Assembly (NCBI GenBank): GCA_024654025.1
Contig: JANLIR010000003.1
Span: 1,658-65,657, forward strand
DNA from: Candidatus Wolfebacteria bacterium
GTDB taxonomy: Bacteria > Patescibacteriota > Minisyncoccia > UBA6257 > UBA9933
Direction: 5' to 3'
DNA length: 64,000 bases
How positions within the stretch are numbered: position 1 is the stretch's first letter; each line of letters opens with the position of its first letter. The translations under genes and the position numbers were made by a program. Below the pieces are notes generated by a model. The model was not told the DNA's origin and searched no databases. It was given only the letters and a program-made list of their open reading frames with translations. Positions 7,782 through 61,759 of this stretch are shown here, piece by piece.

Positions 7782-8846
7782 ATGTTCTCTAAAAAACCAA
7801 AAATCGCGATAAACGGATTTGGGAGAATAGGAAGATTGTTTTTCCGACAAGCGTTTCCCGCCCGAGGCGGATCCGCCTTTGGCGGAGACGCGGAGAAATT
7901 TAATATTGTTGCCATAAATGATTTGGGAGATATTGAAAATTTAGCGTATTTATTGAAATACGATTCTGTTTACAGAATTTATGATAAAGAAGTTAAAGCC
8001 AATAGAGAAAAGGGCGTAATTTTGGTTGACGGAAAAGAAGTTAAATTTATTTCTGAAAAAGATCCAACTAAGTTGCCGTGGAAAGAATTAGAAATCGACA
8101 TAGTGGTTGAGTCGACAGGAGCGTATGAATCTTTTGAAAAATCCAAAGCGCATTTGGATGCTGGAGCCAAGAAAGTAGTTTTAACTGCTCCCGCTAAAGA
8201 CCAAGACGGCCAAATAGGAAAAACTGTTTTGGTTGGATTAAACGAAAACGAGTTGAAAACTTGCAATATAAGCTCTAACGCGTCTTGTACGACCAACGCG
8301 GCTTCGCCGGTAATCGCCATAATGTCCGAAGAGCCGGGTATTGAAAAAGCTGTTTTAAACACTATACATGCATATACCAATACGCAGACGATTGTTGATA
8401 GCCCTGTTAAGGGAAATGATTTTAGACGCGGTCGGGCCGGAGCTCAAAATATAATTCCTTCGACAACCGGAGCGGCGATAGCGGTAACGCGGGCTTTTAA
8501 AGAATTGGAAGGAAAATTTGACGGCATTGCCATAAGAGTGCCGGTTGTAACCGGATCAATTGCGGATATAACTTTTATTTCAAAAAGAAATACTTCAGCC
8601 GAGGAAATAAACGAAATTTTTAAAAAAGCGGAGAAATCAAAACGCTGGCAGGGGATTTTAAAAACAACCGAAGATCAGATTGTTTCAACGGATATCATCG
8701 GTGAGCCATACGGAGCGATTGTTGATTTAAAATTTACCAAAGTCATCGGCGGCAATTTGGTGAAAGTTTTGAGCTGGTATGATAACGAAGCCGGATATGT
8801 GGCAACTCTTATAAAACACGTTCTTAAAGCTGCGGAGAGTTTATAA
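7782..8846 (+). CDS. gap: Glyceraldehyde-3-phosphate dehydrogenase (with a 12-aa GC-rich loop insertion near the N-terminus)
   Basis: INGFGRIGR, SNASCTTNAASP active-site motif, WYDNE; insertion PARGGSAFGGDAEK between the Rossmann strand and VAINDL. Confidence 0.9.
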   Translation: MFSKKPKIAINGFGRIGRLFFRQAFPARGGSAFGGDAEKFNIVAINDLGDIENLAYLLKYDSVYRIYDKEVKANREKGVILVDGKEVKFISEKDPTKLPWKELEIDIVVESTGAYESFEKSKAHLDAGAKKVVLTAPAKDQDGQIGKTVLVGLNENELKTCNISSNASCTTNAASPVIAIMSEEPGIEKAVLNTIHAYTNTQTIVDSPVKGNDFRRGRAGAQNIIPSTTGAAIAVTRAFKELEGKFDGIAIRVPVVTGSIADITFISKRNTSAEEINEIFKKAEKSKRWQGILKTTEDQIVSTDIIGEPYGAIVDLKFTKVIGGNLVKVLSWYDNEAGYVATLIKHVLKAAESL

Positions 8847-8866
8847 TTATCAATAAGCAAATTGTT

Positions 8867-8995
8867 TCTCGCTACCGTTCGCTCGCCCAGCGAGCGTGCT
8901 CACTGGCGTTCGTCGTTCGCTCCTCCGACACTTCGGTCGGAGACCATGCCCGCTCACTCCTCAAGCCGCGCTCGAAATCAATTTTCTTATTGTAA
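8867..8995. other. GC-rich hairpin-dense intergenic segment (candidate structured RNA or leader upstream of trmD)
   Basis: about 60% GC in an AT-rich genome; hairpins cgctcg-cccag-cgagcg and ctccgac-acttcg-gtcggag; no ORF. Confidence 0.35.
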
Positions 8996-15199: not shown

Positions 15200-15394
15200 T
15201 CAAAACAAGTGATGTTCCGCCAGAGGCGGACAGGCGCACGCACGGAGCGTGTGGTGGCTTAAGATTGAGTCGAGATTGCAACTCTTGTGTTTTTTACACC
15301 ACGCCTCGTATTTTTCCGCCCATTCCTTGTCTCGGTATTTTAATCCGCACTCAGAGCATTGGTAGGACTTTTGGTTTTGATTGGCGTTATTCAT
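15200..15394 (-). CDS. Small Cys-rich (zinc-ribbon-like) protein
   Basis: CSECG...CKKHKSC; start abuts the upstream stop codon (translational coupling). Confidence 0.4.
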   Translation of the reverse strand: MNNANQNQKSYQCSECGLKYRDKEWAEKYEAWCKKHKSCNLDSILSHHTLRACACPPLAEHHLF

Positions 15395-15865
15395 TTATTC
15401 AACCACAATCGTACCACCTTCACCGGGGTTAAGATGATTGTGATATTTCCAGTTGCCTGCCTTAGTGAAAGTAAAAGAATAATTTTCGCCCCTTGAGTAT
15501 CCGCGTTTTGCGTCAAAACCAGAATAATCGGTATGAATCGGATGAGGGTTTGAAGCAACCCACATCGGCCCTGACTTTTCGTTTTTGAAGATAACTGTTG
15601 TTCCGATCTTCACGCGAAGAATGCTCGGAGAAAATCCTGAATCGCTGTATGCTACGACATTCTTTTCTGTGGCTGGCGCTTGACTTACGGATGGCTGCGA
15701 AACTGGCTGCTCGGTTGACGGCACCGAAGTTTGCTGTTGCGGAACTGTTTGCTGATTTGATGTTTGAGGAACCGACGGTGTCGATTGGGATGTCCCCTTA
15801 AAAAGAAAATATCCGCCAACGAGAACAACTGCGACGATAACAATTGCGATGATAGATTTGTTCAT
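15395..15865 (-). CDS. Secreted cupredoxin-fold-like protein (His-rich, no Cys; putative metal binding)
   Basis: signal/TM then a Ser/Thr/Pro/Gln linker then a beta-rich domain KIGTTVIFKNEKSGPMWVASNPHPIHTD...WKYHNH; fold assignment is tentative. Confidence 0.4.
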   Translation of the reverse strand: MNKSIIAIVIVAVVLVGGYFLFKGTSQSTPSVPQTSNQQTVPQQQTSVPSTEQPVSQPSVSQAPATEKNVVAYSDSGFSPSILRVKIGTTVIFKNEKSGPMWVASNPHPIHTDYSGFDAKRGYSRGENYSFTFTKAGNWKYHNHLNPGEGGTIVVE

Positions 15866-15927
15866 ATAAGTTTAGTTATTGATTAAAGTTAATAAATTAT
15901 TTTTAAAGGCTTTCGGCTTTGGCCCTT

Positions 15928-16116
15928 TTATTTTTCTTTCCATTTCCACCATACAAGTCCAGCCGCAACTAAGAAAGCAACTCCGATTATCCCATGTATG
16001 TTGTGTAGATATAATCCAAATTGTTCATGATTAAGTGGTAATGGAGCTGTGTGGTCAATAAGCCAATAAAGTCCGATAATAACTAAAACGATAACCGTAA
16101 TAATTGTTTTGTTCAT
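15928..16116 (-). CDS. Small two-TM membrane protein
   Basis: 62 aa, two hydrophobic helices, Trp-rich C-terminus. Confidence 0.4.
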   Translation of the reverse strand: MNKTIITVIVLVIIGLYWLIDHTAPLPLNHEQFGLYLHNIHGIIGVAFLVAAGLVWWKWKEK

Positions 16117-16139
16117 ATTGGTTAAGATTACTAATTATT

Positions 16140-16760
16140 TTATCCGCGAGCGTTTTTGAGGGCGCGGGTCCACCACAAAAGTTGAGTGATCATGGCCTTT
16201 GCCTGATCTGCAAGCGAGGCGAAAAGTTCTTTTGCGTCCATTTTGCCAAAGAGCACTTGGAAATACTGCTCGCCGGGAATGTGCACCGCCACTCGGATCG
16301 GCGCCATTTGAAGCTCAACGGCATTGAGGCGTAACTGTTCAACTGCGCGCGCTCCGCCGACACCGCCATAACTTACGAAGGCAACCGGCTTATTGTTCCA
16401 TTCCTGATAGACCCAATCGAGAGCATTTTTCAGCACGCCGGACGTGCCGTGGTTGTATTCCGGGGTAATCATAATAAAAGCGTCTCCCTCTGCAATTTTT
16501 TTGGTAAAGCGCGTGACTGCCTCGTTCTTAAACGGCTCTTGCTTGAATGACGGACTCACGGGTTCGTTAAAAAACGGCATCTCGTAATCCCTCAAGTCAA
16601 GCACCTCGACCGAAATCCCGTTTTGTTTCTTGATTTCATCGGCAATCCACACAGCGGCTTTATCGCTAAATCGGCCTTCGCGAGTGCTACCTGCTATTAC
16701 TTTGATGTTGAGTGATGTAGTGTTTTTCATAGGTTGTAAAATTAATTTAATAAATCTCAC
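16140..16760 (-). CDS. NAD(P)H-dependent FMN reductase (flavodoxin-like fold, ArsH/ChrR family)
   Basis: IKVIAGSTREGRFS...PEYNHGTSGVLKNALDW motifs of PF03358; GTG start overlaps the arsR-family stop (GTGA); alternative ATG at 16730. Confidence 0.7.
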   Translation of the reverse strand: MRFIKLILQPMKNTTSLNIKVIAGSTREGRFSDKAAVWIADEIKKQNGISVEVLDLRDYEMPFFNEPVSPSFKQEPFKNEAVTRFTKKIAEGDAFIMITPEYNHGTSGVLKNALDWVYQEWNNKPVAFVSYGGVGGARAVEQLRLNAVELQMAPIRVAVHIPGEQYFQVLFGKMDAKELFASLADQAKAMITQLLWWTRALKNARG

Positions 16761-17059
16761 GCGCTACTTTTTCGCTTTTTCTTTGGTCTAATCTCCTCTG
16801 CAAGGCGTTTGAGGAGGTGGATGGTGTGCTCGACATTGAGCGTATACCGAACTTCCTGCCCTTGCCGTTCATCTTGCACCAAGCCAGTTTCCCTAAGAAC
16901 GCGCAGGTGCTGAGATACGAGGGGTTGAGACAGTTTTGTTTTCCTCGCAAGCTCGCTTACCGTCTTATGGCCGGAGAAAAGTGCCTCCACGATGCGATAG
17001 CGCGGAACACTCCCGATACCCTTACCAAACTTTTCCATTTCCTTGCACAAATCTGTCAT
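16757..17059 (-). CDS. ArsR/SmtB-family HTH transcriptional regulator
   Basis: RYRIVEALFSGHKTVSELARKTKLSQPLVSQHLRVLRETGLV winged-helix signature. Confidence 0.75.
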   Translation of the reverse strand: MTDLCKEMEKFGKGIGSVPRYRIVEALFSGHKTVSELARKTKLSQPLVSQHLRVLRETGLVQDERQGQEVRYTLNVEHTIHLLKRLAEEIRPKKKRKSSA

Positions 17060-17153
17060 ATGTAGATATTAGCATATTCTAATAGACCAATGCAAGCCAA
17101 AAATTCCAAAATAAAGCCCGCGCGGAGCAGTCATTTCCGAACAAGTCAGTTTT

Positions 17154-17239
17154 GGTGCGCGGGAGAGGATTTGAACCTCCAAGCCCTTGCGGGCGCTACC
17201 ACCTCAAGGTAGTGCGTCTGCCAGTTTCGCCACCCGCGC
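17154..17239 (-). tRNA. tRNA-Leu (anticodon GAG)
   Basis: hand-folded cloverleaf: acceptor gcgcggg/cccgcgc, anticodon stem ctacc/ggtag with loop ttGAGgt, long variable arm, TtC loop ggttcaaatcc, encoded CCA. Confidence 0.8.
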
Positions 17240-17254
17240 ATAGTTTAATTATCA

Positions 17255-17278
17255 TTAAAAAACTTGAATTTTCAAGTT
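17255..17278 (-). terminator. Hairpin plus U-run on the minus strand downstream of rplS
   Basis: minus strand reads aacttga-aaat-tcaagtt then tttttt. Confidence 0.45.
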
Positions 17279-17282
17279 CAAA

Positions 17283-17321
17283 CGAGATTCTTCATCCGAC
17301 AGTTGGCGGATTCAGAATGAC
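17283..17321 (+). repeat. REP-like repeat, copy 2 (half unit)
   Basis: cgagattcttcatccgacagttggcggattcagaatgac, about 85% identical to 5130-5166. Confidence 0.55.
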
Positions 17322-17362
17322 CAAGGAGGATGTTGTCTGCGTAGATCTGCCGCTTTGATTTG

Positions 17363-17400
17363 TTGTAGGTTGTAGGTCGTTGGTTGTGGGTTGTTAGTTA
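17363..17400. repeat. Degenerate heptamer tandem repeat (TTGTAGG)x5
   Basis: ttgtagg ttgtagg tcgttgg ttgtggg ttgttag, in the 3' UTR of rplS (CCTACAA on the transcribed strand). Confidence 0.6.
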
Positions 17401-17402
17401 GC

Positions 17403-17729
17403 TTACGCCGCCACTCCGATTTTTTCTCGAGACTTTTTCTTGGAGAGATTTCTTACAAAATAAATTTTTGAGCGGTGCACTTTTTTGGGCGAGCTCGTAA
17501 TTTCAACTTTATCTATTAACGGCGAATTTATGGGATAAATTTTTTCCACTCCAACTCCGGCAACCGTTGAGCGGACCGTGAAAGTACCACCGGACTCATT
17601 TCCGTGTTTTCTGGCAATCACAAGCCCTTGGAACCTGCCGATTCTTTCCTTGTCGCCTTCTTTTATTTTTTCGTAAACCCGGACCATTGCCCCAGATTTG
17701 ATTTTATCGAGTATCTCTTGCTTTATCAT
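17403..17729 (-). CDS. rplS: 50S ribosomal protein L19
   Basis: MVRVYEKIKEGDKERIGRFQGLVIARKH...GVGVEKIYPINSP L19 signature. Confidence 0.9.
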   Translation of the reverse strand: MIKQEILDKIKSGAMVRVYEKIKEGDKERIGRFQGLVIARKHGNESGGTFTVRSTVAGVGVEKIYPINSPLIDKVEITSSPKKVHRSKIYFVRNLSKKKSREKIGVAA

Positions 17730-17741
17730 GGTTTTTATATA

Positions 17742-18530
17742 TTAGTTAGTGTTTTCTAATTTGTCAACGATTTTTTGCAATTCCTTGGGCAGACCAGCTT
17801 CTATTTTAATTCGACGGTTTTCTGAAAGATTGAATTCAAGAGATTTTGCGTGAAGAAATTGTCTATTTAATTTGAAGGGGACTCCCTTGGACAAGTCGTT
17901 CGACCCTGAGGGTCTCAGACCCGATGGGCTCAGGACGGGTTTTTTAGGACCATACAGAGAGTCGCCTACAATTGGATGGCCGATGGAAGCGAGGTGTACT
18001 CTGATTTGGTGCGTTCTGCCTGTTTTTGGTATAACTTTCAGCAGGCTGAAAGTAGTGGATTTATGCGAATGAATAACGGATTTATACGGATCAAAAAATT
18101 TCAATACTTCGTATTCTGTAATGGCTGGTTTTTCCATTTTCCCTTTAAAAACCGTTCTTTTGGTGGTGCCGGGTTTTAGGCTGATTGGTTTTTCTATAAC
18201 CCCTTTTTTGTTTTTAACTTCGCCCCAAACTAAAGCTAAATACGTTTTTTTGATTTTGCGTTCCTGAAATAATTTTTTTAGATATTCAAAGTATTTTTGG
18301 TTTCTAGGAACGATAATTATTCCGGAGGTGTCTTTATCAAGCCGATGGACTATGCCCGGCCGATTTTTGGGATCGTCGCCGACATTTTTTATTTCCGGGT
18401 ATTTTTTAACCAGCCAATCGGAGAGAGTTTTCTCAGTGCTGGTTGCGGTTGGGTGAACAAGCAGCCCCGCCGGCTTGTTGATGGCGATTAGATTTTTGTC
18501 TTGGTAGAGAATTTCAATTTTTTCGTTCAT
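17742..18530 (-). CDS. RluA-family 23S rRNA/tRNA pseudouridine synthase
   Basis: LIAINKPAGLLVHP, HRLDKDTSGIIIV catalytic Asp motif. Confidence 0.8.
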   Translation of the reverse strand: MNEKIEILYQDKNLIAINKPAGLLVHPTATSTEKTLSDWLVKKYPEIKNVGDDPKNRPGIVHRLDKDTSGIIIVPRNQKYFEYLKKLFQERKIKKTYLALVWGEVKNKKGVIEKPISLKPGTTKRTVFKGKMEKPAITEYEVLKFFDPYKSVIHSHKSTTFSLLKVIPKTGRTHQIRVHLASIGHPIVGDSLYGPKKPVLSPSGLRPSGSNDLSKGVPFKLNRQFLHAKSLEFNLSENRRIKIEAGLPKELQKIVDKLENTN

Positions 18531-18556
18531 GTTTTTGCGTATGATATAAATATAGC

Positions 18557-18590
18557 AAAAATCCGCCTAATTTTAATTGGGCGGATTTTT
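18557..18590. terminator. Bidirectional intrinsic terminator downstream of the tRNA-Ile/tRNA-Val pair
   Basis: aaaaatccgcc - 12 nt loop - ggcggattttt. Confidence 0.7.
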
Positions 18591-18592
18591 TG

Positions 18593-18664
18593 TGGGCGTT
18601 AGAGGGATCGGACCTCTGACCTTTTCGATGTCAACGAAACGCTCTACCACTGAGCTAAACGCCC
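18593..18664 (-). tRNA. tRNA-Val (anticodon GAC)
   Basis: gggcgtttagctcagtggtagagcg...ttGACat...ggtccgatccctctaacgccca; CCA not encoded. Confidence 0.8.
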
Positions 18665-18667
18665 TTC

Positions 18668-18742
18668 TGGTGCGTGTGGAAGGAATCGAACCTTCGACCT
18701 CTGTCTTATCAGGACAGCGTTCTACCACTGAACTACACACGC
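18668..18742 (-). tRNA. tRNA-Ile (anticodon GAU)
   Basis: gcgtgtgtagttcagtggtagaacg...ctGATaa...ggttcgattccttccacacgcacca; CCA encoded. Confidence 0.8.
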
Positions 18743-18791
18743 ATAAAATAAAAAACGGTATTTAAAAATATACACGTTTTTTTAAAATTGT

Positions 18792-18989
18792 CTATTCTTT
18801 TATAATCCCGATATTTTTGAGTTTTTCAAAATTAAATCTTGCAACCGGAGAGGCTAAATTGTTTTGGCCTTCTATACTTTGAAAAATATTTTTGGCAAAG
18901 GTGATGGTAAAAAAGATTACGATAAGAAGCGCTGTTAGGATTAAAACGCCGGCGATTGTAAAAATAATTTCCCGTTTTTTTGAGTTCAT
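18792..18989 (-). CDS. Small membrane protein, hypothetical
   Basis: 65 aa with one central TM helix. Confidence 0.4.
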   Translation of the reverse strand: MNSKKREIIFTIAGVLILTALLIVIFFTITFAKNIFQSIEGQNNLASPVARFNFEKLKNIGIIKE

Positions 18990-18996
18990 CGTTATG

Positions 18997-19524
18997 TTAA
19001 AAAGAAAATATTTGTCCGTTTAAATTTCCATTGAAAGCGCGGCTGTTTTCAAAATTTAAATCCATTGATGTTAGTTGGACGGCGTATTTGCTGTTTTCAA
19101 TAGCTTTTAAAAAGTTGGCGATACTTAAAAATCCTCCCGAAGCGCTATTTAAGGACAGGACCATAGAGGTTCTGCGAGCCTTATTTTCAAGGGAGGGAGT
19201 TTCTTCGCGAAATTCCAAATTTAAGTTTATGCCGTTTGTTTGCGCCAATGCAATCAATTCTTTTTTGGAATTTATTAATTGCTCTTTTGTTATCAGCGCT
19301 GAGTCGAGCTCCGCGGAATAAGAAGCGGCTTTTTGTGATTCGGATTGTAAAATCGTCAATAATTCCAAGCCACGATTTTTTCTTGAGATCTCCAATTTTG
19401 CCTGGCTAATTTGCTGGGCTTTTTTGCTTGAATCGCTGGCCAACAATATTACCGTTACTAGAACGATTAAAATAAGCCCTAAAATAGCCGAAATTGTAAT
19501 TATCAAATATTTCCGAAAATTCAT
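18997..19524 (-). CDS. Membrane-anchored coiled-coil protein, hypothetical (start taken at MNFRKYL, not the longer ORF)
   Basis: the longer ORF would overlap dprA; an internal Met followed by a TM helix is more plausible. Confidence 0.45.
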   Translation of the reverse strand: MNFRKYLIITISAILGLILIVLVTVILLASDSSKKAQQISQAKLEISRKNRGLELLTILQSESQKAASYSAELDSALITKEQLINSKKELIALAQTNGINLNLEFREETPSLENKARRTSMVLSLNSASGGFLSIANFLKAIENSKYAVQLTSMDLNFENSRAFNGNLNGQIFSF

Positions 19525-19547
19525 TTTATATACTAATATATTATCAA

Positions 19548-20420
19548 ATGGCGCCGTTAAAAACAATTTATTCTCATGATGAAAATTTTCCCGCGCTTTT
19601 AAACCAAATTTCAAATGTACCGGAAAAAATTTTTGTTTTGGGAGATGAGGCAGTTTTGAATGAAAAGTTAAAGATCGCGATAGTGGGGACGAGGAAGGCG
19701 TCTTTGGCGGGCAGGAATTTAGCAAGAAAATTCGCTAAAGAATTGACTCAGTTTGGAATAACCGTAGTTAGTGGTCTGGCTATGGGAATAGACTCTGCCG
19801 CTCACGAAGGAACAGTTCAAAATGCCGGTAAAACAATAGCGGTTTTAGCCAATGGTTTGGATAAAATTTATCCGGCTCAGAACGAAAATTTGGCCAATGA
19901 AATTTTAAAAAATGGCGGCGCTCTAATTTCAGAATATGCTCCGGGTTTGCCTTCTTTACCGCACCAGTTTTTGGAAAGAAACAGAATTATCAGCGGTTTG
20001 TGCGTGGCTACAATAATTATTGAGGCGCCCGATAGGTCGGGATCTTTGGCAACGGCCCGTTTTGCGGCAGAGCAGGGAAGGGAAGTTTTTGTCGTGCCGG
20101 GACCGATAAACGACGTTAATTATATCGGTTCTCATAAATTAATTAGAGACGGCGCCAGATTAGCGTCTTCGATAAAAGATATTTTTGAAGATTTGGATAT
20201 TGAGATAGTCGGAAATGAAAATAAAAAAGAAAGAATTTTTAATATTGATGATCCTGAAAAAAAGCAGATTGTGGATATTTTAATTGAAGCCGGCGAGCCT
20301 CTTTCGATTGACAAAATTGCGAATCTCACTAAACTTGAGCCTCAAGTGATTAACCCAAAAATTGCATTTTTGGTGATTGAGGGAATAATTAAAGAAACAG
20401 AGAAGGGATACACTCTGTAA
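19548..20420 (+). CDS. dprA: DNA processing protein DprA (Smf)
   Basis: IAIVGTRKAS..GITVVSGLAMGIDSAAHEG Rossmann-like DprA core plus C-terminal winged helix. Confidence 0.85.
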   Translation: MAPLKTIYSHDENFPALLNQISNVPEKIFVLGDEAVLNEKLKIAIVGTRKASLAGRNLARKFAKELTQFGITVVSGLAMGIDSAAHEGTVQNAGKTIAVLANGLDKIYPAQNENLANEILKNGGALISEYAPGLPSLPHQFLERNRIISGLCVATIIIEAPDRSGSLATARFAAEQGREVFVVPGPINDVNYIGSHKLIRDGARLASSIKDIFEDLDIEIVGNENKKERIFNIDDPEKKQIVDILIEAGEPLSIDKIANLTKLEPQVINPKIAFLVIEGIIKETEKGYTL

Positions 20421-23679: not shown

Positions 23680-25824
23680 ATGAGACAATACCCTCCTGAA
23701 AAATATCGAAATATCGGTATTATCGCGCACATCGATGCCGGTAAAACAACCATAAGCGAGCGGGTTCTTTTTTATACCGGAATTTCCCATAAGATCGGGG
23801 AAGTTCATGAAGGAGAAGCGGTGATGGACTGGATGGAGCAGGAAAGAGAAAGGGGAATTACTATAACCGCGGCGGCGACAAATTGTTTTTGGACGCCGGT
23901 TCGATTGCTTTCAAGAGCTAGCGATGAAAACGAACAACAGAAAATAAGAAGCGAAAAAGAACACCGGATAAACGTTATTGACACTCCCGGACACGTTGAT
24001 TTTACCGTTGAAGTGGAAAGATCTTTAAGGGTTTTAGACGGCGGAGTTGTGGTTTTTGACGGCGTTGCCGGCGTTGAACCGCAGTCGGAAACGGTCTGGC
24101 ACCAAGCGGATAAATATAAAGTGCCGAGAATGTGTTTTATAAATAAGCTGGACAGGATGGGAGCGAGTTTTGAAAATTCTTTCAAGTCAATTTATGAAAA
24201 ATTGACGCCCAGCGCGGTGGTAATACAATTGCCAATAGGTTTGGAGGCTAATTTTGAAGGAGTTATTGATTTGATAGAAAGGAAGGCTTATTACTTCGAA
24301 GGCGAGCGCGGAGAAAAAGTTTTAGAAAAAGAAATTCCTGAAAATTTAAAAGCGGACACGGAAAAATATCGGGCTAAATTGGTTGAAAAAATCTCCGAAT
24401 ACAATGAAGAGTTGCTTTCAAAATATTTAAATGGAGAAGAAATTTCCATCGATGAATTAAGACTCGGCTTAAGAAGCGCGACTTTAAAAAATCAACTGGT
24501 TCCGGTTCTATGCGGTTCGGCTTTGAAAAATAAAGGCGTGCAGCTTCTTTTGGACGCAGTTTTGGATTATTTGCCGTCGCCTAAGGATCTTATTGAACTC
24601 AAACCGATAAAGGGAATAGATCCGAAAACCGGCGCGGAAATAATTAGAAATCCGAGCGATGACGAACCTCTTACCGCTCTGGCTTTTAAAATCGCCACCG
24701 ACCCTTTTGTGGGAAGCCTAACTTATTTTCGAGTTTACAGCGGAGTGCTTAAAAAAGGAACTTATGTTTTGAACTCTTCAAAAAATGATCAGGAACGGAT
24801 AGGAAGAATAGTGCGAATGCACGCTAACAAGCGCGAGGAAGTTGATGAAATGTACGCCGGCGATTTGGGAGCGATAGTCGGTTTGAAAAACACGTCTACC
24901 GGAGATACTCTTTGTGATCCGGATTCGCCGATTGTTTTGGATAAAATCACTTTTCCGGAACCGGTTATCTCGGTTCGTATTGAGCCGAAAACAAAAGCTG
25001 ACCAGGAAAAAATGGGTATTGCTCTCAGAAAATTATCCGATGAAGACCCGACATTTCGAGTCAGCGGCGATATGGAAACAGGGGAAACTATTATTTCCGG
25101 AATGGGCGAGCTTCATTTGGATGTTTTAGTTGACAGAATGAAAAGAGAATTTGGAGTTGAGGCCAACGTGGGAAGGCCGCAAGTCGCCTATAAAGAAACT
25201 ATCAAAGGAGAGGCCCAAGCGGAAGGAAAGTATATCCGCCAATCCGGCGGACGCGGCCAGTACGGCCATGTTTGGCTCAAAGCGAAAAGTTTGGAAAGAG
25301 GCAAGGGATTTGTTTTTGTTAATCAAATCAAAGGAGGCGTTATTCCGCAGGAATTTATTCCGGCGGTTGAAAAAGGAGTCAAAGAAGCGCTGGATAAAGG
25401 AGTGGTCGCGGGCTATACATTGACGGATATAGAAGTTACGCTTTATGATGGTTCATATCACGATGTTGATTCTTCGGAAATCGCGTTTAAAATAGCCGCT
25501 TCTATGGCGCTTTCGGAAGCGGCCAGAAGGGCAAAGGCGGTTTTACTTGAGCCGATAATGAAGGTTCAGGTTGTAGTTCCTCCGGAATTTTTCGGAGACG
25601 CCAGCGGAGATTTAAATTCAAGGCGGGGCAAAATCGAAAATATGAGCGACCGGGCCAATATGAAAATCATTGACTCGAAAGTTCCTTTGGCGGAAATGTT
25701 CGGTTATGCCACAAAATTAAGGTCAATAACCCAAGGCAGAGGAAGTTTTCCTCCTATGGAATTAAGCCATTACGAGGAAGTGCCAAACAATATAACGCAA
25801 CAGATAATAGAAGGGAAGAAATAA
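23680..25824 (+). CDS. fusA: Elongation factor G (with about 14 extra residues in the G domain before the DTPGH motif)
   Basis: [22 protein letters not shown]; domains II-V present. Confidence 0.9.
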
Positions 25825-26755: not shown

Positions 26756-27274
26756 ATGGTTTATCATTCAAAATCTTTAAAAGACACTCAAAAATTTGCC
26801 GCATTACTGGCAAAAGCCCTTCGACCCATTCGACAGGACTTCGATGGTGAGCCCTTCGGTGGTGAGTCGCTCAGGACGGTCGAACCGCTCAGTCGAACCG
26901 CTCATGGTAGGCAAGCTTTAGTAATTGCTCTGAAAGGAAATTTAGGGTCGGGGAAAACTACTTTTACGCAGGGGTTTTTAAGAGGGTTGGGAGTAAAGAA
27001 AAAAATAACCTCGCCCACTTTCGTTATTTTTAAGCGTTACGAGTTAATAGTTAATCGTTACAAGTTTGTTTACCACATCGATTGTTATAGGATTAAAAAA
27101 AGCCAGGAACTTTTGATTTTAGGGATAAAAGAAATTTTTGATAATCCTAAGAACATTGTATTGATAGAATGGCCGGAAAAGATAAAAAATATTTTACCGA
27201 AGGAGAGATTTAATTTGAGATTTGAATACGGAAAAAAAGAAAATGAGCGTAGTATTATGATGTCTGATTATTAA
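26756..27274 (+). CDS. tsaE: tRNA t6A37 biosynthesis ATPase TsaE (with an approx. 30-aa GC-rich in-frame insertion)
   Basis: P-loop GNLGSGKTTFTQG; insertion RPIRQDFDGEPFGGESLRTVEPLSRTAHGRQ encoded by GC-rich DNA containing a 13-bp tandem duplication. Confidence 0.8.
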   Translation: MVYHSKSLKDTQKFAALLAKALRPIRQDFDGEPFGGESLRTVEPLSRTAHGRQALVIALKGNLGSGKTTFTQGFLRGLGVKKKITSPTFVIFKRYELIVNRYKFVYHIDCYRIKKSQELLILGIKEIFDNPKNIVLIEWPEKIKNILPKERFNLRFEYGKKENERSIMMSDY

Positions 27275-29889: not shown

Positions 29890-30060
29890 CTCGGAGAAGG
29901 CGTCTAGCCGCAAATTCCTATGAGTACCGGCGGTTCTTCGGCTCCAGCGGCCAAAGCCCGCCTGCGCTCTCGGCATCGCAAGTCGCCTAAGGCGACACCA
30001 AGCTTGCGATGCCTGCGAGAGCTACTCTACGGAACTTACGGCTGGGCGAAGGTTTTTTTG
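29890..30060 (+). other. GC-rich (about 60%) structured leader/candidate ncRNA upstream of pilB
   Basis: nested hairpins gctctcg-gcatcgcaag-[tcgcc taa ggcga]-cttgcgatgc-cgagagc; ends in gggcgaagg + T7; the only ORF is frame-shifted relative to pilB and composition-driven. Confidence 0.4.
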
Positions 30061-50834: not shown

Positions 50835-51626
50835 ATGGAAAATATTCGGGAAAAACCTTATCTTTCTGTTATTATCCCGGCTTATAATGAAGCAAAAAGA
50901 TTGCCGTTAACTTTAATTGATATAAATAAACATCTTTCCAAGGCGGATTTTTCCGCCATAGGCGGATCTCCGCCCAAGGCGGATGCGCCTATGGAGCACG
51001 CCTCCGGAGGAGATTATGAAATAATAGTTGTTGACAACAATTCCAAAGACGCTACTCGTGAAGTTGCCGAGAGATTTACTCACTTGCTAAAAAATGCAAA
51101 GGTGATAGAGTGTACCATTCAAGGAAAAGGCGCGGCAGTAAAAGCTGGTATGCTTGCGGCAAAGGGCGAATATAGGCTGTTTATGGACGCGGATAATTCC
51201 GTATCAGTTGATCAGGGGATTAGCGCGCTTAAATACTTTAAAGAAAGCTACGGAGTTGTTATTGGTTCGCGCGACGTAGGCGGCGCTAAAAATGACCAGC
51301 CGTGGTACAGGCAAATCGCCGGTAATATTGGAAATCTAATAATTCAAGTTTTGCTTTTGCCGGGATTGTGGGATACGCAGTGCCCGATGAAAATATTCAC
51401 TGGCGAGGCCGCGGAAAAAGTTTTTCCGCTGATGAAAATAAACAAATGGGGCTTCGATGTGGAAGTGCTGGCATTGGCTAAAAAATTCGGATTTAAAATT
51501 AAAGAAGTCCCGGCTATTTTTATAAACGACCCGAATTCGAAAGTAAAAGCTTCCGCTTATATCAAAACTTTTTTAGAAGTTTTTAAAATCAGGCTGTGGT
51601 TATGGTTCGGAAAATACGAAAATTAA
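50835..51626 (+). CDS. GT2-family glycosyltransferase (polyprenyl-phosphate sugar synthase-like, DPM1/GtrB type) with a GC-rich loop insertion
   Basis: YLSVIIPAYNEAKRL, VVDNNSKDAT, DAD motif; insertion FSAIGGSPPKADAPMEHASGGD encoded by three AGGCGGAT repeats. Confidence 0.8.
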   Translation: MENIREKPYLSVIIPAYNEAKRLPLTLIDINKHLSKADFSAIGGSPPKADAPMEHASGGDYEIIVVDNNSKDATREVAERFTHLLKNAKVIECTIQGKGAAVKAGMLAAKGEYRLFMDADNSVSVDQGISALKYFKESYGVVIGSRDVGGAKNDQPWYRQIAGNIGNLIIQVLLLPGLWDTQCPMKIFTGEAAEKVFPLMKINKWGFDVEVLALAKKFGFKIKEVPAIFINDPNSKVKASAYIKTFLEVFKIRLWLWFGKYEN

Positions 51627-61503: not shown

Positions 61504-61538
61504 TAAAAAAAGCCGCCATACCCAGAGGGGTTGGCGGC
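61504..61538 (-). terminator. Intrinsic terminator (minus strand)
   Basis: gccgcca - 13 nt loop - tggcggc followed by a U-run on the minus strand. Confidence 0.55.
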
Positions 61539-61564
61539 GGATCTTGTTTCTGTTAATCACGGAG

Positions 61565-61759
61565 TTATCGGCGACAATCAGGACAAAGATCGTTTTCGTC
61601 CAGATGTTCGTTTCGGGTAACACGCTGACACTTTTTGCAGTACCTTCCATCTCCGTTTAGAAGGAGATGGAAGTCATCTATTATCTCACCCCCGCCATAA
61701 GGAGATTTTCCTTTTTTGGGCGGTTCGTTTGAGGTGGGCTTGCGCGTCAGATATCCCAT
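61565..61759 (-). CDS. Small zinc-ribbon protein
   Basis: CKKCQ...CPDC; SD caggagga 5 nt upstream of the ATG. Confidence 0.55.
   Translation of the reverse strand: MGYLTRKPTSNEPPKKGKSPYGGGEIIDDFHLLLNGDGRYCKKCQRVTRNEHLDENDLCPDCRR

Follow-up and report, generated by a model that had tools for sequence, protein, structure and literature searches.

A 30-nt double-hairpin element in coding genes of a Candidatus Wolfebacteria bacterium and of other uncultured lineages

Introduction

In a stretch of 64,000 nucleotides of DNA from a Candidatus Wolfebacteria bacterium (hereafter the window), the gene for glyceraldehyde-3-phosphate dehydrogenase (GAPDH), gap, carries a GC-rich palindrome that lies in frame within the coding sequence. 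How does a palindrome come to lie within a conserved housekeeping gene without interrupting its reading frame? An earlier note on this DNA had pointed to the segment 7856-7900 and to similar motifs in other genes, and had proposed a family of tiny GC-rich palindromic elements that insert into, or expand within, coding loops. Here we describe the unit that underlies these segments, its occurrence in other genomes, and the explanations that may account for it.

Results

Copies in three genes of the window

The palindrome reported for gap is present as GGCGGATCCGCC at 7866-7877, and it forms part of a longer element that has relatives in two further genes. The features referred to in the following are:

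7782-8846, plus strand: type I glyceraldehyde-3-phosphate dehydrogenase gene (gap), a host gene; open reading frame (ORF) with PDB matches to E 1.6e-93
7857-7886: 30-nt element CCCGCC-CGA-GGCGGA-TCCGCC-TTT-GGCGGA in gap, in frame, read as PARGGSAFGG (residues 26-35)
50835-51626, plus strand: family-2 glycosyltransferase (GT2) gene, a host gene; Pfam PF00535 at 1.1e-26
50952-51011: 60-nt in-frame insertion in the GT2 gene, apparently two nested 30-nt elements, delimited by its sequence and by the empty site of orthologue L128
15200-15394, minus strand: gene for a 64-residue CxxC...C zinc-ribbon-like small protein, a host gene; family with 333 matches
15216-15230: single 15-nt hairpin TCCGCC-AGA-GGCGGA (loop TCT on the minus strand)
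26815-26912, plus strand: GC-rich in-frame insertion in tsaE, of a different family

In the window, GGCGGA-N(0-12)-TCCGCC was observed three times versus 0.04 expected, and exact TCCGCC-NNN-GGCGGA hairpins were located at 7872, 15216, 50952 and 50969, with one further hairpin containing a single mismatch at 7857. A scan for the generalised hairpin NNNGCC-NNN-GGCNNN gave 7 matches versus 1.7 expected, and five of the seven fall at the gap, GT2 and zinc-ribbon-like loci, all three of which are intragenic. The bare hexamer GGCGGA is also twofold enriched (68 versus 34 expected, 51 of the 68 on the coding strand), which we do not count as evidence because it largely reflects strand-biased Gly-Gly codon usage; the match at 25235, for example, is a conserved EF-G motif. 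An Rfam scan of the window returned three tRNAs only.

Filled and empty sites

The gap product is 100% identical to a protein of a Candidatus Wolfebacteria metagenome-assembled genome (MAG). The element is located directly 3' of the codon TTT (Phe25), and comparison with the 82%-identical orthologue L001, whose empty site reads GCG TTT TCT GCG GGG AAA, delimits an insert of exactly 30 nt with intact native flanks. As the earlier note had stated, GAPDH thereby gains an additional loop, of 10 residues, at a site that is short elsewhere, both in solved GAPDH structures and in 115 of 120 homologues. In an AlphaFold2 model the insert is predicted to form a loop that joins helix 15-24 to strand 41-46, pLDDT values being below 50 for residues 27-35, in line with the surface-loop location that had been suggested. 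In every insert-bearing GAPDH the nearest neighbour is free of the insert, with at least three gains at the identical nucleotide position and a further gain elsewhere in the gene (L005), which suggests that other GAPDHs acquired the element independently. A TsaE homologue (P0331) with the segment FSAGGGSSSGG points in the same direction. However, since the closest GAPDH among 5.8 billion proteins is only 82% identical, each gain is deduced from trees of diverged genes and could partly be a loss. Recurrence at one codon boundary could reflect structural tolerance instead of targeting; other, unrelated GC-rich inserts occupy the very same TTT boundary.

In the case of GT2, whose homologues carry the source name dolichyl-phosphate beta-glucosyltransferase, three tandem copies of the motif had been proposed. 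An in-frame insertion is indeed found at 50952-51011, amounting to 60 nt when compared to the 87%-identical orthologue L128, and the filled/empty pair (empty site GAT TTT|GAT TAT GAA) defines a clean site directly after the TTT codon without target-site duplication. However, the first GGCGGA (50942) is native sequence that encodes the conserved K-A-D-F, the native site reading GGCGGATTTT and resembling an element end, and the remainder is better described as two copies, one probably nested inside the other. The outer element would comprise 50952-50968 plus 50999-51011 (TCCGCC ATA GGCGGA TC^CGCC TCC GGAGGA) and the inner one 50969-50998 (TCCGCC CAA GGCGGA TGCGCC TAT GGAGCA). Nesting is preferred because it is the only arrangement that gives each dimer a first loop ending in A and a second loop beginning with T (nnA, Tnn); three tandem copies, or two tandem dimers with +2/-2 indels, break this loop rule and were rejected.

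The motif noticed at 15218-15233 corresponds to the single hairpin at 15216-15230. It is read as PPLAE and lies in a 50-nt GC-rich segment (15211-15260) that encodes an unconserved C-terminal tail (...ACACPPLAEHHLF); homology of the ORF stops at about residue 47, upstream of this tail.

Architecture of the unit

The unit is a 30-nt double hairpin with the consensus TCCGCC-nnA-GGCGGA-TCCGCC-Tnn-GGCGGA, that is, two adjoining 15-nt hairpins. In each of them a GC-rich stem of 6 bp (canonically TCCGCC/GGCGGA) is closed by a loop of 3 nt; loop 1 has a final A and loop 2 an initial T. Among compensatory double changes in degenerate copies, 32 fit the two-hairpin structure and 3 fit one long hairpin, and a single 15-bp hairpin or cruciform is thus ruled out as the conserved structure. 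In the copy of GAPDH L005, for instance, the stem has become CCAGCC..GGCTGG, which changes the peptide to P-A-S-G-W and preserves the pairing. Judged from these sequences, the conserved object is the nucleic-acid hairpin rather than the peptide.

Perfectly complementary loop pairs are depleted (50 observed versus about 95 expected), which indicates that structure matters, and the middle loop position is anti-complementary. That the dimer arose when a single hairpin underwent simple inverted duplication is not supported, since loop complementarity is at chance level (24 versus 16.7, with a null maximum of 30). Similarly, the flanks are not an extension of the palindrome, as flank positions do not covary and the GT2 flanks are native. 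The segments fold far better than their shuffled versions (z of -4.2 to -4.4), and in about 1 Mb of loci in which the seed copies had been masked, the perfect 6-bp hairpin found most often was TCCGCC with a 3-nt loop. In the collection where the 30-nt dimer gives at least 120 matches, a 45-nt trimer gave none; because of this, and because the GT2 insert can be read as two 30-mers, one inside the other, we consider the dimer to be a discrete unit. The notion of tiny palindromic elements in coding loops therefore holds as far as insertion is concerned, which is borne out by empty sites and recurrence, but not with respect to free expansion.

Distribution, reading frame and flanks

The exact 30-mer pattern (24 specified bases) has at least 120 matches on genome contigs and at least 120 on metagenome contigs, where far less than one would be expected, so that public genomes and metagenomes contain at least 240 further copies of the element, in unrelated genes as well as between genes. 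All genome matches listed belong to MAGs, mostly of Patescibacteria and also of Omnitrophota, PVC and Ignavibacteria, and they stem from independent projects and assemblers, contigs of 0.7-1.6 Mb included. Among 2.9 million viral contigs only two carry the element, and phages were therefore discarded as the vector of cross-phylum spread.

The following statistics on frame, flanks and orientation rest on copies that were chosen for perfect stems. About 74% of the copies are genic (72-76% in two data sets) and 24-28% intergenic; compared to a coding fraction of about 87%, this is a mild depletion in genes and not the enrichment inside coding sequences for which a test had been suggested. Clearly, genic copies are not distributed evenly over the frames: 158 of 184 are in the single frame that reads SAxGGSAxGG (75:8:8 and 83:2:8 in the two data sets), though all frames are open, and off-frame copies read PPxAD or RRIRLWR. 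An orientation bias (77:19) was found in frame-0 genic copies only, with none in other frames and a ratio of 9:12 for intergenic copies. Frame, orientation and genic depletion together demonstrate statistically that translated copies are under selection, and from the frame and orientation bias alone we infer that the inserts are retained in the mRNA.

With regard to the flanks, 85% of copies have T at -2 and 78-84% have A at +2, which was reproduced in the genome and the metagenome set. Both flanks are conserved together in 72%, and this joint conservation does not fit a simple one-sided target of the IS200/IS605 type. Flanking direct repeats of at least 5 nt accompany about a fifth of the copies (24 versus 6.6 expected), and some copies lie within 7-nt tandem repeats. 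Copies have no consistent position relative to gene starts or ends; an N-terminal enrichment in the genome set was not replicated in the metagenome set and was dropped.

Discussion

A probable proliferating mini-palindrome, filtered by selection

In our view the copies probably represent a proliferating, non-autonomous mini-palindrome that is filtered by selection on the translated loop. Each new copy would enter as one discrete block of 30 nt, preceded by a T-rich triplet and followed by an A-rich one (consensus TTY^RAA), without target-site duplication; within genes the preceding triplet is typically a TTT codon for Phe. Because the element is palindromic, its hairpins are kept by compensation and no duplication is formed, a hairpin-recognising single-strand process supplied in trans may be responsible. 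The mover could be an enzyme of the HUH/IS200-IS605/RAYT type, or the element could pass through RNA and cDNA, which has been proposed for mitochondrial double-hairpin elements; 10 otherwise unannotated ORFs of the window contain no transposase or reverse transcriptase domain, and no RAYT/Y1 transposase is among them. As the statistics show, insertion is roughly indifferent to gene, frame and orientation, and selection then purges most genic copies. Those that survive occupy surface loops or tails that tolerate them, are phased so as to be translated into two Ser-Ala-x-Gly-Gly repeats, a flexible peptide that resembles a linker, and mostly have the orientation with Lys/Glu plus Ser, not Arg plus Phe. 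Such inserts would be translated and harmless, and peptides such as FSAKGGSASGGK would be expected.

A broader reading is possible, and we advance it with rather less confidence. The 30-nt unit may belong to an undescribed cross-phylum class of ultra-small double-hairpin insertion elements that enter as discrete blocks at TTY^RAA without target duplication, and are mobilised outside the known transposon classes (by hairpin-guided single-strand insertion or via RNA/cDNA). Jointly with sister families (of the GCCCTTCGAC...GTCGAAGGGC and CCTTCGACAGGCTCAGGAC types), such elements would then give rise to a major share of the loop insertions found in proteins of uncultured lineages such as Patescibacteria and Omnitrophota. 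No prior description of the 30-nt element was found in the literature.

Alternative explanations

Spread might instead require no dedicated enzyme and depend on template switching, or on gene conversion mediated by microhomology, in the course of replication or repair: stalled at a T-run, a 3' end would pair with another copy, replicate its hairpins and return. The lack of target-site duplications, flanks made of simple T-runs and A-runs, the similarity of the native GT2 site to an element end, several unrelated GC-rich palindromes at the same TTT boundary, copies within short tandem repeats typical of slippage, and 10 window ORFs free of transposases all agree with such a route. However, the unit is strictly discrete at 30 nt with trimers absent, its precise termini are identical in many phyla, which is hard to obtain from microhomology alone, and the empty GAPDH site of L001 has no GGCGGA-like microhomology. 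We regard this route as unlikely.

It is more doubtful still that the hairpins are functional nucleic-acid sites under selection, comparable to REP/BIME functions, for example because they are recognised by a conserved protein that binds DNA or RNA, stabilise mRNA or direct its processing, or serve in supercoiling or as cruciforms, with genic copies tolerated only because there is almost no intergenic space. Preservation of each stem by compensatory changes, conservation of the stem sequence across phyla, the scarcity of perfectly complementary loops and the folding scores would be in agreement with a function. At each site examined, however, the closest relatives are devoid of a copy, positions vary among orthologues, placement relative to gene starts and ends is inconsistent, and outside frame 0 there is no orientation bias. 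Moreover, a function would be compatible with a mobile element, and it would account for the persistence of copies, not for their origin.

Selection on the peptide, with (SAxGG)2 as a useful flexible linker and the palindrome as a by-product of codon choice, could draw on the strong frame and orientation preference in genes and on the use of GGSASGG-like peptides as engineered linkers. Yet it is largely refuted by the intergenic and off-frame copies, among them the PPLAE copy of the window, and by compensatory changes that alter the peptide and keep the pairing, as in L005; also, synonymous codons are not freely used, and we give this explanation very little credence. Ordinary lineage-specific loops, chance palindromes or assembly artefacts, in favour of which one might cite the metagenomic assembly of all genome matches listed, can practically be dismissed, as counts are far above chance, the element recurs in independent projects and assemblers, long contigs included, and artefacts would not be expected to produce frame bias and compensatory variation.

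Relation to known systems

The 30-nt element appears to be a bacterial analogue, though a much smaller one, of the 'selfish DNA in coding genes' of Rickettsia and mitochondria. Rickettsia palindromic elements (RPE; Ogata et al., 2000, 2002) are described in PMC10969869 as several families of about 100-150 bp in Rickettsia only. What they have in common with the present case is that palindromic repeats lie in frame in unrelated housekeeping genes, in a genome that is small and dense in genes; translation yields extra surface segments compatible with function, and the repeats are interpreted as selfish DNA (PMC10969869). RPE are five times larger and have no sequence relationship to the 30-nt element, which differs in its fixed double-hairpin architecture, its presence in many phyla and the roughly one quarter of copies between genes.

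Mitochondrial double-hairpin elements, yeast GC clusters and repetitive hairpin-forming elements of sponges are short, GC-rich and made of one to three hairpins in AT-richer genomes; they are found in intergenic regions as well as in variable stretches of genes for rRNA and protein, and they are retained in transcripts (PMC2800124). Like them, the 30-nt element has two adjacent hairpins, each behaving as a unit. Its inserts lie in variable loops and GT2 shows no duplication; in Allomyces the absence of flanking duplications led to the idea of an RNA intermediate (PMC2800124). However, the mitochondrial elements are organellar, species-restricted and mostly intergenic, with no reported codon-phase or peptide signature (PMC2800124), whereas the 30-nt element lies on bacterial chromosomal contigs, crosses phyla and is mostly genic. 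MITEs (Correia, ERIC, BOX, RUP and others) are likewise non-autonomous, dispersed and sometimes fused in frame, but they measure at least 50 bp and have IS-derived terminal inverted repeats and target-site duplications (PMC10969869), whereas here the whole element is the palindrome, there is no known parent IS and the GT2 site is unduplicated. The stringent palindromes within functional coding sequence of Nematomorpha mitochondria are similar in their location, but they are long and both arms encode conserved protein (PMC6649704).

REP/BIME sequences, which are associated with RAYT (IS200/IS605-like Y1) enzymes, resemble the 30-nt element as imperfect palindromes of 20-40 nt in many dispersed copies, recognised as single-stranded DNA hairpins without target-site duplication. 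They are extragenic by definition, lineage-specific and marked by a conserved GTAG/CTAC tetranucleotide, whereas the copies described here are predominantly intragenic and flanked by TTY and RAA. The cyanobacterial HIP1 (GCGATCGC), a GC-rich 8-mer palindrome with a GATC core, is abundant in genes as well and arises via substitution, not block insertion.

Until now, selfish palindromes in coding genes were an oddity of Rickettsia and organelles, and the present element would be their smallest form yet, in many uncultured phyla. Its inserts would repeatedly alter the length of protein loops in Patescibacteria and other uncultured phyla, and would be a natural experiment on which loops of essential enzymes tolerate a flexible insert of 10 residues. 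They may account for odd Gly/Ala/Ser-, Pro- or Arg-rich segments and for spurious 'hypothetical proteins' in MAG annotations, and may serve as lineage markers in candidate-phyla genomes. Discrete size, absence of duplication and the TTY^RAA junction constrain the search for the enzyme or process that moves the element.

Other GC-rich segments of the window

Two further segments had been linked to the same motif in the earlier note. The one near 61512-61540 is not a member of the family, as 61505-61545 forms an intrinsic terminator on the minus strand, with a hairpin followed by U7. The tsaE insert is real, as is its 13-nt tandem duplication (26879 and 26892), and as for gap and GT2 the nearest orthologue, here the 74%-identical P0241, is without the segment, so that the suggested alignment of orthologues argued for insertion in all three genes. 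However, it belongs to a different GC-rich family by sequence and repeat structure: about 22 residues long (26834-26899 by protein alignment), it consists of three short tandem duplications flanked by the imperfect 12-nt inverted repeats AGCCCTTCGACC/GGTCGAACCGCT, and it has the words TTCGACAGG and GCTCAGGAC in common with the insert of the GT2 orthologue L131.

Hairpin elements in the window

The window has a G+C content of 39.5%. Its GAPDH shows 100% identity with a protein from a Candidatus Wolfebacteria MAG, which places the host in the Patescibacteria (Candidate Phyla Radiation). The window is rich in housekeeping genes (H+-PPase, ClpP, gap, trmD, fusA, ribosomal proteins, tsaE and a family-2 glycosyltransferase (GT2) gene). 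Scanning the window for GGCGGA-N(0-12)-TCCGCC gave 3 matches where 0.04 were expected. What is repeated is a hairpin, TCCGCC-NNN-GGCGGA, found exactly at 7872, 15216, 50952 and 50969 and with one mismatch at 7857. A relaxed scan for NNNGCC-NNN-GGCNNN with at least five of six bases paired detected 7 sites in the window versus 1.7 expected, and 5 of the 7 lie at the gap, 15216 and GT2 loci. The twofold excess of bare GGCGGA was rejected as evidence, because the coding strand carries 51 of the 68 copies and because some matches, such as that at 25235, are the conserved Gly-Gly codons of EF-G.

Hairpin features in the window
7857-7886: cccgcccgaggcggatccgcctttggcgga, within the GAPDH ORF 7782-8846
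15216: hairpin in the C-terminal tail of a 64-residue zinc-ribbon-like ORF, minus strand

The earlier note had placed the gap segment at a short turn of other GAPDHs, and solved structures indeed have a short turn where the window protein carries 8-10 additional residues. The closest of 120 GAPDH homologues (P0002, 82-85% identical) reads FRQAF-SAGK-FNIV where the window protein reads FRQAF-PARGGSAFGG-DAEK-FNIV; the DNA of the relative is GCG TTT TCT GCG GGG AAA, and the window has exactly 30 nt more, after the TTT codon. Similarly, a GT2 orthologue (87% identical) reads GCG GAT TTT^GAT TAT GAA; in the window, TTT and GAT are separated by exactly 60 nt, with both flanks intact and no duplication. 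The nearest orthologues of both genes thus lack the segments, as the earlier note had supposed. Of the three GT2 copies it listed, the first is native, its GGCGGA belonging to K-A-D-F codons. As the best reading of the 60 nt, we infer a 30-mer TCCGCC CAA GGCGGA TGCGCC TAT GGAGCA nested within TCCGCC ATA GGCGGA TC^CGCC TCC GGAGGA, since this reading alone gives both elements the loop rule of the family. In an AlphaFold2 model of the GAPDH (mean pLDDT 80.7) the insert lies between helix 15-24 and strand 41-46, with residues 27-35 below a pLDDT of 50, so that the surface loop foreseen in the earlier note is predicted, and predicted to be disordered.

At the third locus, the zinc-ribbon-like family is real (333 matches), homology ends at about residue 47, ahead of the GC-rich tail, and the tail is read in the PPLAE frame. 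A minus-strand block at 15395-19725 (cupredoxin-like, FMN reductase, ArsR regulator, L19 and pseudouridine synthase genes and three tRNAs) breaks the otherwise plus-strand gene order, and a local drop in GC skew coincides with it.

Anatomy and conservation of the 30-nt element

In the copies listed, the final base of loop 1 is A in 94% and the first base of loop 2 is T in 91%, so that the centre is a perfect palindrome of 14 bp, A-GGCGGATCCGCC-T. The element is slightly asymmetric, because its commonest loops (AGA/TTY) read AAA/TCT on the opposite strand, and perfectly complementary loops are depleted (50 observed versus about 95 expected). The 5' flank is T-rich (T at -2 in 85%) and the 3' flank A-rich (A at +2 in 78-84%). 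TTT^AAA, TTC^AAA, TTT^CAA and TTT^GAA are the most frequent junctions. Since the two flanks showed no covariation among the element copies tested and are native sequence in GT2, they may reflect a preferred target, TTY^RAA. Of 123 copies, 24 are flanked by direct repeats of 5 nt or more (6.6 expected). Some 30-mers in other MAGs lie inside tandem repeats of about 7 nt that match on the two sides, such as AAGATTG, AAAAGTC or AGGATTT (L064 2465, L066 7364, L041 4743, L107 6217, L039 1191).

Degenerate copies with 1-6 mismatches contain 23 + 9 = 32 positions at which both stem partners changed and pairing was kept, yielding for example the stems TCAGCC/GGCTGA, CCAGCC/GGCTGG, CCCTCC/GGAGGG, CTCGCC/GGCGAG, TGCGCC/GGCGCA, TTCGCC/GGCGAA, TCCACC/GGTGGA and TCTGTC/GACAGA. 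A single long hairpin was rejected as the conserved structure, with just 2 + 1 = 3 compensatory positions versus 32. Several compensatory changes alter the encoded residues, and this pattern of substitution points to the hairpin, not the peptide, as the conserved object.

Distribution and probable recurrent gain

The element is also present in four other GAPDHs, and every GAPDH copy directly follows a TTT codon.

Elements in other GAPDH loci
L002: TCCGCC CAA GGCGGG TCCGCC TCT GGCGGA
L003: TCCGCC AAA GGCGGA TTCGCC TCC GGCGGA
L004: TCCGCC CAA GGCGGA TCCGCC TCT GGCGGA
L005: TCCGCC AAA GGCGGA CCAGCC TCT GGCTGG; other position within the loop

In a distance tree, insert-bearing GAPDHs are scattered and the nearest neighbour of each lacks the insert; only P0011 and P0096 may share one insertion event. 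Judged from this tree of diverged genes, GAPDHs have probably acquired the element recurrently and independently. A TsaE from another genome carries FSAGGGSSSGG in its variable loop.

The pattern TCCGCCNNNGGCGGATCCGCCNNNGGCGGA, for which less than one chance match is expected because 24 bases are specified, gave at least 120 matches in GTDB species genomes and at least 120 in JGI metagenome contigs; only 2 of 2.9 million viral contigs contain it. The genome matches listed are all MAGs, and a rough tally of their record titles gave about 65 Patescibacteria lineages, 11 Omnitrophota, 13 PVC (Kiritimatiellae, Lentisphaerae, Verrucomicrobiota, Planctomycetes), 12 labelled uncultured Gammaproteobacteria, 5 Ignavibacteria or Bacteroidota (contigs of 1.6 Mb among them) and a few Chloroflexota and others. 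Host loci among the matches listed have a G+C of 28-72% (medians 43-46%). The 45-nt trimer had no match in the metagenome collection that gave at least 120 dimers, so the 30-nt dimer is a discrete unit. Even with the seed copies masked, no other perfect 6-bp hairpin was as common in about 1 Mb of loci as TCCGCC with a 3-nt loop (23 copies, versus 7 for the next GC-rich stem). Composite elements also exist, as TCCGCC hairpins are joined to other GC-rich motifs (ccctgagcgaagtcgaagg) in L009 (343 and 542), L010 (4587 and 6408) and L055 (7325) and, in one Kiritimatiellae MAG, lie within a larger repeated unit with identical flanks.

Coding frame and selection

Enrichment within coding sequences had been expected. 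Instead, copies are mildly depleted there: 91 of 126 and 93 of 123 in two independent sets of matches listed are genic, as assigned by crude ORF-based genes, when coding sequence makes up 87%. Codon phase 0 accounts for 75 of 91 and 83 of 93 genic copies, even though the other phases are equally stop-free. Copies in this phase encode [F/L/M/I/V]-SA[K/E/R/Q]GG-SA[S/F]GG-[K/E/N/D], most commonly SAKGGSASGG (48/158). Frame-0 genic copies are oriented 77:19 with respect to the sense strand, versus 9:12 for intergenic copies lying between co-directional genes and 6:9 for copies in other frames. Being confined to frame-0 genic copies, the bias tracks the encoded peptide rather than replication or transcription. 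Though indirect, this argues strongly that inserts are translated and unsuitable insertions purged.

Relation to known elements and possible mechanism

Rickettsia palindromic elements (PMC10969869) resemble the 30-nt element in behaviour, being in-frame, translated and tolerated, but differ in size and taxon. Its architecture is like that of mitochondrial double-hairpin, GC-cluster and RHE elements (PMC2800124), which are organellar whereas its hosts are bacterial. It lacks the extragenic location that defines REPs, and the target duplication, terminal repeats and size of MITEs. A full-text search including motif and peptides, in a searchable literature that is incomplete, found no description. 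We classify the element as a selfish coding palindrome, a known kind, in an undescribed form, which could prove to use a new insertion mechanism.

The element occurs as discrete blocks with clean, duplication-free junctions and a T-rich/A-rich junction preference, at many independent sites; its evolution preserves the hairpin, and a post-insertion filter acts on the translated product. Whatever makes the copies would recognise the folded single strand or depend on it. One candidate is an enzyme of the HUH/Y1 type acting in trans, like those of REP/RAYT and IS200/IS605, although conservation of both flanks jointly in 72% of copies counts against a simple IS200/IS605-like model. Another is a passage through RNA and cDNA, suggested for the double-hairpin elements of Allomyces on the ground that they likewise lack flanking duplications (PMC2800124). 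Copying by enzyme-free template switching is a serious alternative. Ten otherwise unannotated ORFs of the window included no candidate mobilising enzyme. In L129, the nearest tsaE relative, a 359-residue RVT_1 (reverse transcriptase) gene (1-1080) overlaps the tsaE start, where the window has ribosomal protein S9; nothing ties RVT_1 to the element.

Other GC-rich inserts and structures

The tsaE segment, which the earlier note had grouped with the others, is a lineage-specific insertion that adds about 22 residues compared to a 74%-identical orthologue, in a loop hypervariable across Patescibacteria, but its make-up is different: it has no TCCGCC/GGCGGA hairpins and is built of three short tandem duplications, with imperfect inverted repeats (AGCCCTTCGACC/GGTCGAACCGCT) at its edges. 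It shares words with CCTTCGACAGGCTCAGGACAAGCT, inserted after the same Phe codon in GT2 orthologue L131, and another GAPDH, L130, has a 45-nt palindrome (GCCCTTCAAC...GTCGAAGGGTT) after that codon. Thus, these boundaries are used by at least three families of short GC-rich insert. Unrelated GC-rich inserts (ALQQVQGNPERSRRV, PSTGSGQA, PSASSGQDA) occur at exactly the same post-Phe TTT boundary in GAPDH and GT2 orthologues (L130 741-1835, L131 1501-2253; P0058, P0115, P0144, P0175, P0177, P0240). Either this boundary is a hotspot that the inserts share, or insertions are especially well tolerated there.

A motif copy reported near 61512-61540 turned out to be an ordinary intrinsic terminator on the minus strand (61505-61545), made of a hairpin and a U7 tail (dG -20.4 kcal/mol, z -3.8). 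It lies downstream of a Cys-rich ORF of 64 residues on the same strand (61565-61759). At 29890-30060, an intergenic stretch of about 170 nt combines GC-richness with strong self-complementarity (gcgctctcggcatcgcaag...cttgcgatgcctgcgagagc) and a terminal T-run; Rfam gave no match at the gathering threshold, and the stretch is a candidate structured non-coding RNA. The gap-trmD spacer is filled by a GC-rich segment of about 110 nt (8860-8975) with hairpins cgctcgcccagcgagcg and ctccgacacttcggtcggag, where L001, the nearest GAPDH relative (82% identical), has an AT-rich spacer of 60 nt; it looks like a further, non-coding insertion of a different family.
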